From the sequence record PZ445524.1: a stretch of DNA of 64,000 nt; one strand, given 5' to 3'. The notes beneath the pieces are model-generated. The model was not told where the DNA came from. It searched no databases and saw only the letters and a list, made by a program, of their open reading frames with translations. The stretch comes from a phage. The first letter of the stretch is position 1. Every line of letters starts with the position of its first letter. Made by a program: the position numbers and the translations under genes. This document shows, piece by piece, positions 37,556 through 46,573 of the stretch.

Positions 37556-38134
37556 TTAGGAATTACGGGCTGCATTAGCAACGGCATACGCGTACTGAAT
37601 ATTAGCGTCTTTAAACTTACCTTTAGAGGTATCTATTTCTGCCTTAAAGCCGCCTTTAGTCATAACATCGGCAAATTCTTTACGGAAAGCCATTGCATCA
37701 AGACCTTTCCATGATGATTTATGCTTAGCAAATTCAAGACCTGCGAAGTTAACAGCCTTAGCTAATTTATTATCAATAACCCATTTACCGGCTTTAGGCA
37801 CAAACTTCGGGCCTTTCTGTTTAGAGAACAGTTTTAAATTCCAGCGGCGAAGGTCTGCATCAGCTTTAACAAATTCTGAGTCTAAGTTACTAGCAACAAC
37901 ATCTTCAATATGAGCAAATTTAAGTCCGTCAACTTCAATATTTAAATCGGTACGCCAGCGAAGTCCTTCCCATGCGAAGGCTTTAAAGTCGGAAGCCTTT
38001 GTAGCTAAGTACCGTTCAATAGGAGCTGTTTTAGGGTCAAAGCCGTTTCCCGATCGGTAGGTCCACTCATCTTTGTTAATGCCTTTGGCCTTTACTACAG
38101 AAGCTTCGGCAATAAATTCTTGATATGTTTTCAT
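37556..38134 (-). CDS. ipIII: Internal protein III
   Basis: 192 aa beginning with the capsid-targeting leader MKTYQEFIAEA. Confidence 0.8.
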   Translation of the reverse strand: MKTYQEFIAEASVVKAKGINKDEWTYRSGNGFDPKTAPIERYLATKASDFKAFAWEGLRWRTDLNIEVDGLKFAHIEDVVASNLDSEFVKADADLRRWNLKLFSKQKGPKFVPKAGKWVIDNKLAKAVNFAGLEFAKHKSSWKGLDAMAFRKEFADVMTKGGFKAEIDTSKGKFKDANIQYAYAVANAARNS

Positions 38135-38150: not shown

Positions 38151-38468
38151 TTATTCTTTAGGGAAGTTTTTAGAATATGCATCATAAAGCTTATTTCCAA
38201 TACGGCGGAAAACTCTAGCCGCAAAACGATTTTCTGGGTTTTTAATCATGATTTGCATCATATAAGTACCCGCGTCAGAAAGAGCTTCTTCATAGTACCC
38301 GTTAATTTCTTTAAGAGTCCTACGTTTACCACCAGGACCATCAACAGTGATTTTCCATTTACCTGTAGAAGTGCGACTTGGCGGCTCAACTTGTTCAATC
38401 CAAATATAACCGCCTTCTACACGTTGTCCTGCAGCAGATTCTGCAATAAATTCTTGATATGTTTTCAT
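38151..38468 (-). CDS. ipII: Internal protein II
   Basis: 105 aa beginning MKTYQEFIAES. Confidence 0.75.
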   Translation of the reverse strand: MKTYQEFIAESAAGQRVEGGYIWIEQVEPPSRTSTGKWKITVDGPGGKRRTLKEINGYYEEALSDAGTYMMQIMIKNPENRFAARVFRRIGNKLYDAYSKNFPKE

Positions 38469-42227: not shown

Positions 42228-42246
42228 CCCTATCATTTAGATAGGG
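42228..42246 (-). terminator. Intrinsic terminator ccctatc-loop-gataggg with U-tract
   Basis: 7-bp stem then CUUUUUG on the minus strand, 9 nt after the stop of the 187-aa gene. Confidence 0.5.
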
Positions 42247-42254
42247 ATTTAAAA

Positions 42255-42818
42255 TTATTTACCTAGTTTAGCTATTATAGCTTCGGCAGCAGCTTTTAGC
42301 TTAGATGCAGTGTTAATACGATTTTTAATTTCAGTATAAGCATCGCCAAGAACATCAAGGCTATCAGAATAAACACTTACACTATTGCGTTCGCTATTTG
42401 AAATAGAACCTTTAGTTTTACGATCAAAATCGGTATACACGTCTTGAAGATCGCGGGCTGCCTTCTTTGCATCATCCAATGCATCAAGAGCTTTATTCAA
42501 AGCATTAACATATTTTTTAGTGTCAAACATATTCTTAGAAATTTTGACAGGTGCGCGTTCAGGAGTAGCTAAGGCAGATTTAGGAACCTGTTTACCAGAT
42601 GCCAGTTTCTTAGAAATTTTGAAAAATGCTTTATTGAAATTATTTTCTTGACTCATCGTAAAAGAACTATTATCGATGTTATACATTTCAATAGCTTTAG
42701 CTTTCCACTTAAGAAAATCGCCCCGGTCTTTTGGGTCCAAGTGGAAGAATACTTTAGTAAGATCTGCTTCAGATGGTAATTTTGCTGCTTCGGTTAAAAA
42801 TTCTGCATAGGTTTTCAT
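42255..42818 (-). CDS. Internal-protein-like protein with capsid-targeting leader (187 aa)
   Basis: N-terminus MKTYAEFLTEAAK follows the MKT(Y/F)xEF(I/L)xE leader pattern of T4 internal proteins. Confidence 0.55.
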   Translation of the reverse strand: MKTYAEFLTEAAKLPSEADLTKVFFHLDPKDRGDFLKWKAKAIEMYNIDNSSFTMSQENNFNKAFFKISKKLASGKQVPKSALATPERAPVKISKNMFDTKKYVNALNKALDALDDAKKAARDLQDVYTDFDRKTKGSISNSERNSVSVYSDSLDVLGDAYTEIKNRINTASKLKAAAEAIIAKLGK

Positions 42819-42897
42819 TTAAAATCCTTGAAATAATTTATTGGTTATTAATTATTTATTATTGTAACAGCATTCTCCGAGTGATTCAAACTAAAAA

Positions 42898-42919
42898 GCC
42901 CCAACCTTTCGGTCGGGGC
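42898..42919 (-). terminator. Intrinsic terminator closing the tRNA/stable-RNA operon
   Basis: mRNA GCCCCGACC-GAAA-GGUUGGGGC then UUUUU. Confidence 0.55.
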
Positions 42920-42925
42920 TAAGCC

Positions 42926-43236
42926 TTGCGGCAACCTTGTCGGGGTTCCACCTGCTAAGGCAAGTGTTTGTACGAAACGCCGGGACTTGAACCCGGTTAT
43001 TGAGTAGTTGACGCTACTCAATATTTTTAAAAGGCCATATCTCGACCATATCCGAACGTTCCGTCAAAAACGCTACTCGGCTTATGGCAAAGATATTTCC
43101 TCGAATCGATAATTCGGTGCGCCGTTTCTGCTGTGATGTAAGGGGATATTAACAAATCGTAAAGATTTATTAAGACCAGTCCTTACTCAGGGAACATCAG
43201 TCCGACGACTTACCGGTAGCGACCCGGTTTCTTGTC
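42926..43236 (-). ncRNA. Stable small RNA region downstream of tRNA-Arg (T4 rnaC/rnaD equivalent), boundaries unresolved
   Basis: No ORF; lies between tRNA-Arg and the terminator; contains a 9-bp hairpin and a T-arm-like GGGTTCAAGTCCC element. Confidence 0.4.
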
Positions 43237-43313
43237 TGGTCGAGGCAGAAGGATTCTAACCTTCAACCTACGGATTAGAAATCCGTTGCTCTATACAATT
43301 GAGCTATGCCCCG
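43237..43313 (-). tRNA. tRNA-Arg (anticodon UCU), CCA encoded
   Basis: Cloverleaf built by hand: acceptor CGGGGCA/TGCCTCG, anticodon loop TTTCTAA, T-loop GTTAGAATCC. Confidence 0.85.
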
Positions 43314-43316
43314 TAA

Positions 43317-43982
43317 TTAAAATTTCATTTTTCGACCTTTAAACCATCCTTCTGGAATTGGGTCAGTTTTCTTAATACGTTTAGAAACTTTTTCATCTAA
43401 TGAATGAATCCACATCATACCAAATTGGGAATTCTTTTCGCCCTGTTGATGTTTATTTCTGGCGTGAGATTCTTTCATTTTATTAATAGTTTCAGGAGTA
43501 TGATGCTTATTTAAAAATCTGCTATTATTTAAAAATTTTTCCCTGTATTCAGGAGTTGACCACAAGCGTTTAAATACATTTGAACCATGTTTACGATATT
43601 TTTCTTGAAGTAAAATATCATTTTTAAAACGTGACTTAAACGATTTAGCTCCTTTTAAGCTAGCATCTTTCTTCTGGTTTAGCATCCCAGGAATATTTAC
43701 ATGATCCCATCCACCTTCACCACCAAGTTTTAAATTATACACATCTGGTCTATTTAAAAACTCTTCTGTGACAATATTTTTCTCGGCTTCAAGCATAGAT
43801 TCTTTATCATCAAAATACTCTAATATTTCTTTAGAAAAATTTTCTATACCATATTTATCTTGGGCTCTTTTTAATAATTTACCAGAACCCATATATCCAT
43901 CATCTAAATTTTCGGTAGAATGCGCACCAATATAAATTTTATTATTAATTTTATTTGTTATTTTATAAGTGTAATGGAACAT
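43317..43982 (-). CDS. segB: GIY-YIG homing endonuclease SegB
   Basis: 221 aa; GIY-YIG motif (YTYKITNKINNKIYIGAHST); sits between tRNA subclusters as in T4. Confidence 0.85.
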   Translation of the reverse strand: MFHYTYKITNKINNKIYIGAHSTENLDDGYMGSGKLLKRAQDKYGIENFSKEILEYFDDKESMLEAEKNIVTEEFLNRPDVYNLKLGGEGGWDHVNIPGMLNQKKDASLKGAKSFKSRFKNDILLQEKYRKHGSNVFKRLWSTPEYREKFLNNSRFLNKHHTPETINKMKESHARNKHQQGEKNSQFGMMWIHSLDEKVSKRIKKTDPIPEGWFKGRKMKF

Positions 43983-44023
43983 AAATATCTCCTATTTCTA
44001 AGAGTATTTATGTTCCCAAAATA

Positions 44024-44095
44024 TGGCCCTGGGTGGAATTGAACCACCATCTGGCGATTATGAGTCGCTTGCTTGAACCTTCCAGCTACAGGGCC
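44024..44095 (-). tRNA. tRNA-Ile (anticodon CAU), CCA not encoded
   Basis: Acceptor GGCCCTG/CAGGGCC; anticodon loop CTCATAA; T-loop GGTTCAATTCC. Confidence 0.8.
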
Positions 44096-44096
44096 T

Positions 44097-44172
44097 TGGT
44101 GCTGATTGACGGAATCGAACCGCCGACCTTCTCATTACAAGTGAGTTGCTCTACCTACTGAGCTAAATCAGC
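44097..44172 (-). tRNA. tRNA-Thr (anticodon UGU), CCA encoded
   Basis: Acceptor GCTGATT/AATCAGC; anticodon loop CTTGTAA; T-loop GGTTCGATTCC. Confidence 0.85.
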
Positions 44173-44174
44173 AA

Positions 44175-44261
44175 CGGAGGCGATAGGATTTGAACCTATG
44201 AGTCGCCGGAGCGACTGCCGGTTTTCAAGACCGGTGCATTAAACCACTCTGCCACGCCTCC
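44175..44261 (-). tRNA. tRNA-Ser (anticodon UGA), long variable arm, CCA not encoded
   Basis: Acceptor GGAGGCG/CGCCTCC with G discriminator; anticodon loop CTTGAAA; long extra arm. Confidence 0.85.
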
Positions 44262-44263
44262 AG

Positions 44264-44337
44264 TCTCCGCGGCAGGATTTGAACCTGCGACATTCTGCTC
44301 CCAAAGCAGACGCTCTACCAAACTGAGCTACACGGAG
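44264..44337 (-). tRNA. tRNA-Pro (anticodon UGG), CCA not encoded
   Basis: Anticodon stem TCTGC/GCAGA with loop TTTGGGA; T-loop GGTTCAAATCC. Confidence 0.85.
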
Positions 44338-44347
44338 TAAATTAAAT

Positions 44348-44421
<74 letters not shown>

Positions 44422-44426
44422 AAATT

Positions 44427-44513
44427 TGGTGCGAGAAGTGGGACTCGAACCCACAAGGAAATCATTCCGCAGCATTTTAAGTGCTGTGCCTTTACCAATT
44501 TGACCATTCTCGC
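44427..44513 (-). tRNA. tRNA-Leu (anticodon UAA), long variable arm, CCA encoded
   Basis: Acceptor GCGAGAA/TTCTCGC; anticodon loop CTTAAAA; long extra arm. Confidence 0.85.
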
Positions 44514-44514
44514 G

Positions 44515-44587
44515 CTGGGAATAAAGGACTCGAACCTTTGCATCCTGGAATCAAAATCCAGTGCCTTACCAACTTGGCTAATTCCCA
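44515..44587 (-). tRNA. tRNA-Gln (anticodon UUG), CCA not encoded
   Basis: Acceptor TGGGAAT/ATTCCCA; anticodon loop TTTTGAT; only 1 nt separates it from tRNA-Leu. Confidence 0.85.
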
Positions 44588-44684: not shown

Positions 44685-44972
44685 TTACCATTTATGATGA
44701 TATGTATTTACGATACATTCAAGACCCAAAGGATTCTTGAAAATATCATATTCAAGAGGACCTTTTTCCGTTTCAATAAAGAAATCAAAATTTACTGTAT
44801 TAAATTTACGGTCTTCCTTTACTAATTTAACTTGAGAAGATGAACGGTCAATGTAAACCTTTTCAACTTCAAAACATGTTAAAATTCCATAATCATCAAT
44901 CAAGGCTTTAGCTGCGTCTTGATCATATTTATATCCATTTTCAATGGACGATACTTTCGCATAAAGAATCAT
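44685..44972 (-). CDS. Hypothetical protein
   Basis: 95-aa ORF upstream of the tRNA cluster. Confidence 0.45.
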   Translation of the reverse strand: MILYAKVSSIENGYKYDQDAAKALIDDYGILTCFEVEKVYIDRSSSQVKLVKEDRKFNTVNFDFFIETEKGPLEYDIFKNPLGLECIVNTYHHKW

Positions 44973-45632: not shown

Positions 45633-45857
45633 TTATTCAACACCAGCGGCTTTCAAAAGTTTTTTAAGATTGGCAACACCTTGAGCAGAAAATGTGACCT
45701 TGCCACCTTTTTCACTGATAGAACCAACCAATTTAGCAAGTTTATCATTAGGAATTTTTTTAAAATCAGCCAATGTTCCATCAAAGGTTTTTGAAACAAA
45801 AGGCAGTTCGTCTTCATGTCTTTTAGCTTCTGCAATAAATTCTTGATATGTTTTCAT
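45633..45857 (-). CDS. ipI: Internal protein I-like (capsid-targeted, 74 aa)
   Basis: Starts MKTYQEFIAEAKRH (ATG 45855-45857); in the T4 ipI position upstream of 57B. Body not verified against T4 IPI. Confidence 0.6.
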   Translation of the reverse strand: MKTYQEFIAEAKRHEDELPFVSKTFDGTLADFKKIPNDKLAKLVGSISEKGGKVTFSAQGVANLKKLLKAAGVE

Positions 45858-45892
45858 TTTAGTTTCCATTTGGATGTTTTGTTTTGATAGGG

Positions 45893-45926
45893 TAATAATA
45901 TCACCACCCTATCTAAAAGTAAACAG
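45893..45926 (-). promoter_or_regulatory. T4-type early promoter of the ipI-like gene
   Basis: Minus strand GTTTAC, about 18 nt, TGATATTAT within the conserved ttttgatagggtaata element. Confidence 0.45.
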
Positions 45927-45934
45927 TTTATAAA

Positions 45935-46243
45935 CTATTTTATTCCGCGTGATGCAATTGTGTTCTGTCGTTTAACACCAGTTTGTTTAAAGTCATGATT
46001 GTCGATTTGATCGGTACGAGCAACTCCGAATGATGATTTGATTTTAGCTTTAGATCCTTTAGTTATAGAAATAAACATCTCGGAAGCCCCTTTCTTAAAG
46101 TCCGAGGCGATTACTTCAACGCCGTTCTTAGCAAGTGACTTCAGAATTGCCTCTGCATACTCATCGTCAAGACTCGTCTGAGTATTAATAACGAATGTCT
46201 TTGGCGCAGCCGCTTCATTGATAAATTCTTTAAATGTTTTCAT
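45935..46243 (-). CDS. Internal-protein-like protein with capsid-targeting leader (102 aa)
   Basis: Starts MKTFKEFINEAAA; basic body. Confidence 0.55.
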   Translation of the reverse strand: MKTFKEFINEAAAPKTFVINTQTSLDDEYAEAILKSLAKNGVEVIASDFKKGASEMFISITKGSKAKIKSSFGVARTDQIDNHDFKQTGVKRQNTIASRGIK

Positions 46244-46271
46244 TTTATTTTCCTAATTAATTTTGATAGGG

Positions 46272-46305
46272 TAATAGTATCACTACTAAAACCACATGTA
46301 AACAA
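46272..46305 (-). promoter_or_regulatory. T4-type early promoter (IP cassette)
   Basis: Minus strand GTTTAC, 18 nt, TGATACTAT; the 5' leader is nearly identical to that of the next gene. Confidence 0.45.
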
Positions 46306-46315
46306 CTTTGTGAAA

Positions 46316-46573
46316 TTATTTTAAATCTTCTAATCGTTTCTTCATCTTAGAACCGTTCTTAGCGATTTCGCCTGCATCAGAGCATAATGCTAAAAGCGCT
46401 TTAACTTTAGTTTGGTCTCCTTTAAAAGATGAAGGATCCACAGCAGCAGCAAGTTCTTTAATACGAGAGAAAAGACGCTCAGCTTCAGCTAAAGCCATTC
46501 CAAGCTTTACTTCCATACCGTGGGAAGATTCAGTGATAGTAGTTTTTGTAGCAAACTCTTTGAAAGTTTTCAT
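46316..46573 (-). CDS. Internal-protein-like protein with capsid-targeting leader (85 aa)
   Basis: Starts MKTFKEFATKTTITE. Confidence 0.55.
   Translation of the reverse strand: MKTFKEFATKTTITESSHGMEVKLGMALAEAERLFSRIKELAAAVDPSSFKGDQTKVKALLALCSDAGEIAKNGSKMKKRLEDLK

Follow-up and report, generated by a model that had tools for sequence, protein, structure and literature searches.

Does a T4-like phage carry a gene for a packaged internal protein (Ip) away from its known ip genes? The question is raised by a gene for 187 amino acids (aa), read on the minus strand at positions 42255-42818 of a 64,000-nucleotide stretch of phage DNA (sequence record PZ445524.1; the window), which is a segment of a Tequatrovirus (T4-like) genome. 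An initial annotation had proposed that this open reading frame (ORF) begins with a leader of the same type as the ip leaders, ends at its own intrinsic terminator, lies about 3 kb from the main ip locus across the transfer RNA (tRNA) genes and is one of six leader-bearing genes in the window. We found the ORF and its first 13 residues (MKTYAEFLTEAAK; MKTYAEFLTE followed by AAK) as claimed, a leader that matches at its determinants beyond chance, and a terminator confirmed as a hairpin with a CTTTTT tail. On the 57B side, 2.8 kb and eight tRNA genes (43237-44587) separate the ORF from the nearest ip gene, which ends at 45633, and we likewise count six leader-bearing genes (37556-38134, 38151-38468, 42255-42818, 45633-45857, 45935-46243 and 46316-46573). 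The placement 'upstream of the tRNA cluster' has to be turned around: the gene is on the minus strand and therefore lies, in transcription order, downstream of the tRNAs and of the rnaD and rnaC homologues, and upstream of e.8. The central proposal, that a leader-bearing and probably packaged protein is encoded at a site of its own, is sound, and we consider it likely that the gene encodes a T4-type Ip of a not-yet-named family, one that would be packaged, injected and, by analogy, directed against host defenses.

The leader carries the first part of the argument. In T4 IPIII, the first ten residues suffice for head incorporation, and suppressor analysis has assigned residues 4 and 7 to targeting and residues 8 and 10 to processing (PMC9026906). 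MKTYAEFLTE shares 7 of its 10 residues with the IPIII/IPII leader; the three substitutions relative to IPIII affect residues 5, 8 (Leu in place of Ile) and 9. Both targeting determinants, Tyr4 and Phe7, are present, as is the processing motif of the prohead protease gp21 (Leu8-Thr9-Glu10, then the small residue Ala11), and these three residues are the sole L/I-x-E in the 187-aa protein. When the leader pattern MK[TS][YF]xx[FLIV]xxE was scored over the 607 candidate starts of the window, 5 matches were seen, in five of the six leader-bearing genes, with 0.008 expected; a chance match is therefore excluded. Among 37 full-length representatives of the family, position 4 is Phe or Tyr, position 7 is Phe or Ile and position 10 is Glu in every protein, position 8 is Leu or Ile in 36 and position 11 is Ala, Ser or Thr in 36; positions 2, 3, 5 and 9 vary freely. 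The bodies of these relatives are only 13-30% identical to the 187-aa protein, and the retention of the leader positions despite such divergence points to selection on the leader itself. Judged by sequence, MKTYAEFLTE is a genuine T4-type capsid-targeting sequence.

By sequence, the gene is also a self-contained unit, with a predicted promoter, a ribosome-binding site and a terminator of its own (Table 1). The predicted promoter directly follows the terminator that ends the rnaC homologue, whose hairpin is identical in T4 by sequence comparison. Its -35 hexamer is kept in phages RB14, vB_EcoM_G4498 (G4498), HP3 and RB69, and the -10 region differs among those four. Relative to T4, promoter, gene and terminator form an indel of 662 bp, and both of its junctions fall within one nine-base GGGCTTTTT, which forms the tails of both terminators; the GGGCTTTTT tail of the gene's own terminator is the downstream junction. 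The proposition that this is not a real gene is rejected on the strength of the cross-genus conservation of the ORF, its constant architecture, its expression signals and its confidently predicted fold.

Comparison with related genomes gives the cassette a history. The 1-kb region around the gene is 95-97% identical to HY03, G4498 and RB14, and its flanks match about 700 phage records; a gene of the target type occurs in 165 records. Between rnaC and e.8, T2, T4, T6 and PST have an empty site; the window, RB14 and G4498 have the target-type gene only, fD1 another cassette only, and HP3 and fPS-65 both cassettes. The view that the gene 'sits alone' is correct for the window and fails for the many relatives that have a paralogous leader gene beside it. 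The paralogue (HP3 record L004, 1757-2230; fD1 record L008, 17943-18416) encodes 157 aa with the leader MKSYTQFLNE followed by Ala, belongs to PHROG 2280, occurs in 512 phage records and is called 'hypothetical' in nearly every record among the matches listed. It lies directly upstream of the target homologue in HP3-type phages and stands by itself in fD1, and the N-terminal part of its body differs from that of target-type members. Its 29% identity to JS98 orf135 (E-value 9e-9) marks it as a paralogue. In HP3-type genomes, the 31-nt terminator of rnaC is repeated almost exactly, before the first cassette and again before the target homologue, and a third, diverged copy follows the latter. The cassette has apparently been gained or lost by recombination between these repeated terminator sequences.

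Two side observations bear on exchange at this site. In RB69 (Mosigvirus; record L005, 3001-3563), the gene shares 97% aa identity with the Tequatrovirus copies and is split by a frameshift into ORF149c and ORF148c, which suggests either that it moved between genera recently and has since decayed, or that the frameshift is a sequencing error. Three metagenome proteins are chimeras: P0011 joins residues 97-122 to the Nudix region of NudE, as a deletion from here to nudE would produce; P0010 combines a foreign N-terminus with residues 112-176; and P0015 runs from the opening residues of e.8 into the C-terminal 28 residues. All three look like recombination scars around the cassette.

The family reaches well beyond the close relatives of T4. 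The 187-aa protein matches PHROG 2280 ('unknown function') with an E-value of 1.4e-53, its residues 1-181 aligning to positions 1-178 of the 178-position profile. Members include RB14ncORF136c, RB69ORF149c/148c, JS98 orf135, Pet-CM3-4 SCN45822, HP3 gp116 and gp117 and fD1 g140; they differ in linker length and C-terminal domain and have leader, domain order and site in common. Close relatives (at least 89% identity) are confined to T-even-like genomes. An exhaustive HMMER scan of 1.84 billion representatives returned one distant homologue, P0013, at 30% identity and with the leader MITFNEFLNE followed by Ser; a search with a profile based on this homologue yielded 46 clusters, whose longest contigs, at about 170 kb, have the size of a phage genome. 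A tblastn search added 190 phage records, from genera such as Karamvirus, Dhakavirus and Kanagawavirus. Klebsiella phages (KP179, for example) match in the N-terminal part alone, and in Jiaodavirus (PMC13119998) the match is limited to part of the N-terminal domain. JS98, Pet-CM3-4 and Kosakonia phage 305 have the gene at the corresponding position, downstream of their tRNA genes; in JS98 the following gene is annotated e.8, and orf135 begins MKTYNEFLNE followed by Ser. Among the GenBank records listed, family genes are called 'hypothetical protein' or have an equally uninformative name, and the annotators of RB14 and PST named Ip4, Ip5, IpI and IpIII-VI at the two classical loci only. A search of the searchable library for the family's locus tags, accessions or leader strings found no literature.

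What would the leader deliver? The predicted mature form, whose N-terminal peptide after the cut is AAKLPSEADLTK, starting at Ala11, has 177 aa, a mass of 19.6 kDa and an isoelectric point (pI) of 9.5, and 32 of its residues are Lys or Arg; processed IPIII (IPIII*) has 20.4 kDa and a pI of 9.65. AlphaFold2, run on the family alignment, predicts three parts (Table 1) with a mean predicted local distance difference test score (pLDDT) of 81. The N-terminal domain is the conserved core that defines the family, with K37, Y46, I48, A64 and F65 invariant. The linker that follows grows in Karamvirus relatives to 40-50 Pro, Ala and Lys residues in a PAKAPK-type tract. The proteins P0026 and P0032, from two Karamvirus-type clusters (family alignment A4), share 67% identity across the leader, the N-terminal domain and the linker, after which no alignment is possible. 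One of the C-terminal versions ends in LVELSKQTGLSY, and the other is a helical bundle as in the window. The family therefore has at least two unrelated versions of the C-terminal domain, and this domain appears to be exchangeable between relatives, a case of domain shuffling inside a packaged-type protein.

Sequence and fold give no function. Pfam returned sub-threshold helical-bundle noise only (for example, cytochrome b562 at an E-value of 0.006), NCBIfam nothing and PADLOC no meaningful match; the PDB, queried with the protein itself and with the profile of its family, gave designed helical bundles only (E-value > 0.06), and a BFVD fold search recovered the family itself only. A described orthologue with an established function was thus found neither in these five resources nor in GenBank annotation or the searchable literature; the initial annotation had named such an orthologue as grounds for refutation, and that objection does not apply here.

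The proposed function is built from what is established for other Ips. The precursor would be made from its own promoter and, as experiments on T4 IPIII suggest, its leader would bind it to the scaffolding core during prohead assembly; gp21 would cut after Glu10 (Leu-Thr-Glu/Ala), as it does in IPIII. The basic 177-aa product would stay in the head with the DNA and be co-injected, in line with IPIII fusion experiments, and injection with the DNA would allow it to act before phage gene expression. Its job might be to neutralize a host defense against the incoming modified DNA, with the C-terminal domain as the specificity module. This last step is an analogy: Ip1, Ip2 and Ip3 block different GmrSD enzymes, one apiece (PMC12373910), Bas37_0260, whose leader is of the capsid-targeting-sequence type, inhibits McrBC (bioRxiv 10.1101/2025.11.20.689424), and so every leader-bearing T-even protein whose target is known, four in all, acts against type IV restriction. 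The product is small, basic and dispensable and its gene is patchy among close relatives, which makes it accessory as other Ips are. In fD1, liquid chromatography-tandem mass spectrometry of virions flagged the paralogue, g140, as particle-associated, together with the leader proteins g129 and g146, and did not so flag its neighbors g138 and g139 (e.8) (PMC8309999, Table S3). The parts of the reading differ in strength. Packaging and processing of the 187-aa protein are probable from its leader and family; an anti-defense role, given packaging, is slightly favored by the analogy; and type IV restriction as the specific target is a tentative suggestion from the same analogy.

Several results weigh against a packaged anti-defense protein. 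We infer the packaging of the 187-aa protein, and the sole virion evidence is the paralogue's. Of 277 fD1 gene products, 113-137 are listed in that proteome, deoxynucleoside monophosphate kinase and lysozyme among them (PMC8309999); a proteome that holds about half of all gene products makes the g140 entry weak support. Depletion of internal L/I-x-E motifs in the family was not found (55 observed versus 48 expected). The cassette promoter is unlike the early promoter, GTTTAC...TAnTAT, of four of the five other leader genes, and the window's ipIII has no promoter of its own. An exact late promoter, TATAAATA, is absent from the cassette, and the nearest one upstream on the minus strand, at 44926-44933, is separated from the gene by the tRNAs and a terminator. 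With a promoter of non-ip type and no late promoter in the cassette, supply during prohead assembly is assumed. Similarity to a known inhibitor, defense component or solved structure was not found in the searches above, and there is none to T4 Ip1, Ip2 or Ip3 beyond the leader; the known inhibitors are mutually unrelated, so this lack of similarity is compatible with an inhibitor function. Finally, the family appears less variable in sequence than expected of a pure arms-race gene: Tequatrovirus copies are at least 95% identical to one another, position is kept across several genera and the N-terminal domain is well conserved (67% between the two Karamvirus-type clusters).

Synteny, the conserved N-terminal domain, the near-identical copies, the different promoter and the missing late promoter make a DNA-associated role the main rival. 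The product would then be a packaged head protein and not an enzyme inhibitor; its three-helix N-terminal domain and Lys-rich linker would bind the genome, and it could serve in condensation, charge neutralization, help with ejection or shielding of the entering DNA. The lysines and arginines of the mature protein fit such a role, as do the Karamvirus linker tract, which resembles histone-H1 tails, the retention of position and N-terminal domain across genera and the contacts that T4 internal proteins make with DNA phosphates through their lysines (PMC3012670). However, T2, T4, T6 and PST lack the gene, so a structural role would be dispensable; all Ips are basic, yet the tested ones are specific inhibitors; and the swapped C-terminal domains suggest changing protein targets. 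We consider this rival unlikely, although it is the strongest of the alternatives.

Less probable still is that the protein is an unpackaged early cytoplasmic one whose leader is a relic of recombination with an ip gene. T-even ip genes do share leader-coding DNA (first 30 nt compared), the chimeras P0010, P0011 and P0015 show module exchange at this place, and the sole site resembling a promoter is early-type. A relic would decay, however, and the functional leader positions are kept in 36-37 of the 37 diverged relatives; the leader DNA also differs at several positions from that of the window's other ip genes, so it is no recent copy. A third rival, a non-essential prohead-core or assembly helper that enters through its leader and has no role after injection, can draw on the slower head assembly and polyheads of IPIII mutants (PMC9026906) and on a size and charge like those of IPIII, but it is very improbable, since IPIII itself is present in the window, many close relatives with identical head genes lack the gene and swapped C-terminal domains are hard to square with a conserved assembly partner.

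The preferred anti-defense reading and its main rival can also be joined: in a possible mixed model, the N-terminal half would ride on the DNA and the C-terminal half would be specific for a target. A broader proposal, which we hold only tentatively and which may well be wrong, is that the rnaC-e.8 interval is a third ip locus of the Tevenvirinae. It would house one or two PHROG 2280 cassettes for injected two-domain proteins, in which the N-terminal domain and linker ride on the DNA and the C-terminal bundle disarms a class of defense other than GmrSD and McrBC. Such a locus would have been missed because T2, T4 and T6 have the site empty.

The other five leader-bearing genes place this one in context, and all six encoded proteins have a pI of 9.2-9.65. 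The initial annotation had labeled the gene at 38151-38468 ipII, but only its ten-residue leader matches T4 IPII: it has the exact IPII/IPIII leader MKTYQEFIAE with Ser next, and a body unrelated to T4 IPII. Its place between the lysozyme gene e and ipIII inverts the T4 order, in which ipIII comes before ipII. Calling the 42255-42818 gene 'a fourth' leader protein therefore falls, because that count mislabels another non-T4 Ip as ipII. That many alternative Ips exist in T-even phages has been known since 1994, so neither a gene of this kind nor the contrast with the three classical T4 Ips is surprising. At least ten alternative T-even Ips are cited in PMC12373910. The one of the six genes that falls outside the leader pattern has a longer propeptide of the IPI type, MKTFKEFATKTTITE, with Ser next. 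For the gene at 45633-45869 on the minus strand, the mechanical ORF list starts with METKMKTYQEF (45869), and the conserved leader indicates the ATG at 45857. The classical ipI locus of JS98 is occupied and unannotated: record L006 has leader ORFs at 507-716 and 796-1089, between 57B and trna.4, that begin MKSYKEFLTE and MKTYQEFIKE.

The whole neighborhood lies on the minus strand (Table 1). The rnaD and rnaC small-RNA homologues (about 42893-43236, minus strand) lie in a region (43363-42893) that is 87% identical to T4; they match no Rfam family at the gathering threshold, and some GenBank records, G4498 among them, annotate three small 'hypothetical protein' coding sequences over this region. 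ARAGORN calls a tRNA Met(CAT) at 44024-44095 (minus strand), where the corresponding T4 tRNA carries the annotation Ile. Together with segB, 8 tRNA genes are present in the window; RB14 and G4498 have 10 (the extra ones Tyr and Asn) and no segB.

Table 1. Coordinates in the window of the 42255-42818 gene, its cassette and predicted protein domains, and of neighboring and other leader-bearing genes.
Feature	Position	Strand	Remarks
Coding sequence, 187 aa plus stop	42255..42818	-	ATG start; PHROG 2280; = RB14ncORF136c
Cassette of 662 bp (promoter, gene, terminator)	42231..42892	-	Indel relative to T4
Intrinsic terminator ending the rnaC homologue	42897..42920	-	AGCCCCGACC-GAAA-GGTTGGGGCT + TTTTT; upstream boundary of the cassette
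Predicted sigma-70-type promoter	42861..42889	-	TTGAAT-17 nt-TACAAT, TG before -10; consensus match
Shine-Dalgarno AAGGA	42825..42829	-	6 nt 5' of ATG; sequence reading
Capsid-targeting leader, codons 1-10 (MKTYAEFLTE)	42789..42818	-	Predicted gp21 cut L8-T9-E10/A11
N-terminal three-helix domain, residues 17-73	42600..42770	-	pLDDT ~80 in full model, 87.5 alone
Linker, residues 74-100	42519..42599	-	Basic, Pro/Ala/Lys-rich, predicted disordered
C-terminal three-helix bundle, residues 101-186	42261..42518	-	pLDDT >90
Own intrinsic terminator	42228..42246	-	CCCTATC-TAAAT-GATAGGG hairpin, then CTTTTT
Gene 1	48107-47343	-	First in transcription order; then 57A
57B	47101-46646	-	After 57A, before the three leader-bearing genes
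Three leader genes	45633..46573	-	Classical ipI locus between 57B and tRNA.4
Ip5-like leader gene	46316-46573	-	Classical ipI locus
tRNA.4, tRNA.3, tRNA.2 homologues	Between the 45633 leader gene and the tRNA genes	-	
Seven tRNA genes	44587-44024	-	
segB-type GIY-YIG homing endonuclease gene	43982-43317	-	Inside the tRNA cluster, as in T4
tRNA-Arg	43313-43237	-	Eighth tRNA of the window
e.8	42038-41763	-	After the 42255-42818 gene; then e.6, onward to lysozyme e
105-aa leader gene	38151..38468	-	PHROG 3966, 'unknown function'; not T4 ipII
ipIII	37556..38134	-	99% identical to T4 IPIII; leader MKTYQEFIAE

What is new here is modest but concrete: PHROG 2280 is a widespread family, so far without a name, that crosses genera and keeps its packaging leader, and the rnaC-e.8 interval, vacant in T2, T4 and T6, is a candidate third ip site with terminator-bounded cassettes whose products have swappable C-terminal domains. 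The family is common, with 165 records of the target type, 512 of the paralogue and 190 of distant relatives (overlapping sets). Injected internal proteins have recently been a productive source of anti-defense functions, the targets of Ip2, Ip3 and Bas37_0260 having been assigned in 2025, and T2, T4 and T6, which naturally lack the gene, are ready-made test phages. Were the protein a DNA-bound escort, its conserved role outside the arms race would be a first for an Ip. Either way, it adds to a known class and introduces no new principle.

We close by comparing the gene with known systems. The resemblance to T4 IPIII covers 7 of 10 leader residues, all four determinant positions, the L/I-x-E/small cut motif, a mature size of about 20 kDa and a pI of about 9.6, and both genes are non-essential accessory ones. 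The differences are that similarity ends after residue 11, that the gene lies at another locus with its own promoter and terminator, and that packaging is experimental for IPIII and inferred here. With Ip1 (IPI*), Ip2, Ip3 and Bas37_0260 the protein shares the kind of leader, the presumed logic of delivery with the DNA and a patchy distribution; it differs in sequence and fold, and its family, unlike Ip1-3, is conserved across genera. The known inhibitors come from the two described ip loci, one next to e and the other between 57B and tRNA.4, whereas this gene lies between the rnaC homologue and e.8. Silas et al. (2025), who write of 'the two Ip loci in T-even phages' (PMC12373910), assayed ten named ip genes, ip1-10, and the leader strings searched for, including those of this family, were not found in their supplementary text. 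A possible parallel to the cassette is PeSL promoter/stem-loop cassette exchange in T4-type phages (Arbiol 2010, PMC2839356; Comeau 2014, PMC4122927), in which repeated stem-loops enclose a variable ORF, the promoter is early-type and close relatives differ by indels whose junctions lie within the repeat. In contrast, the repeat here is an rnaC-type terminator with a diverged downstream copy (68-75%).
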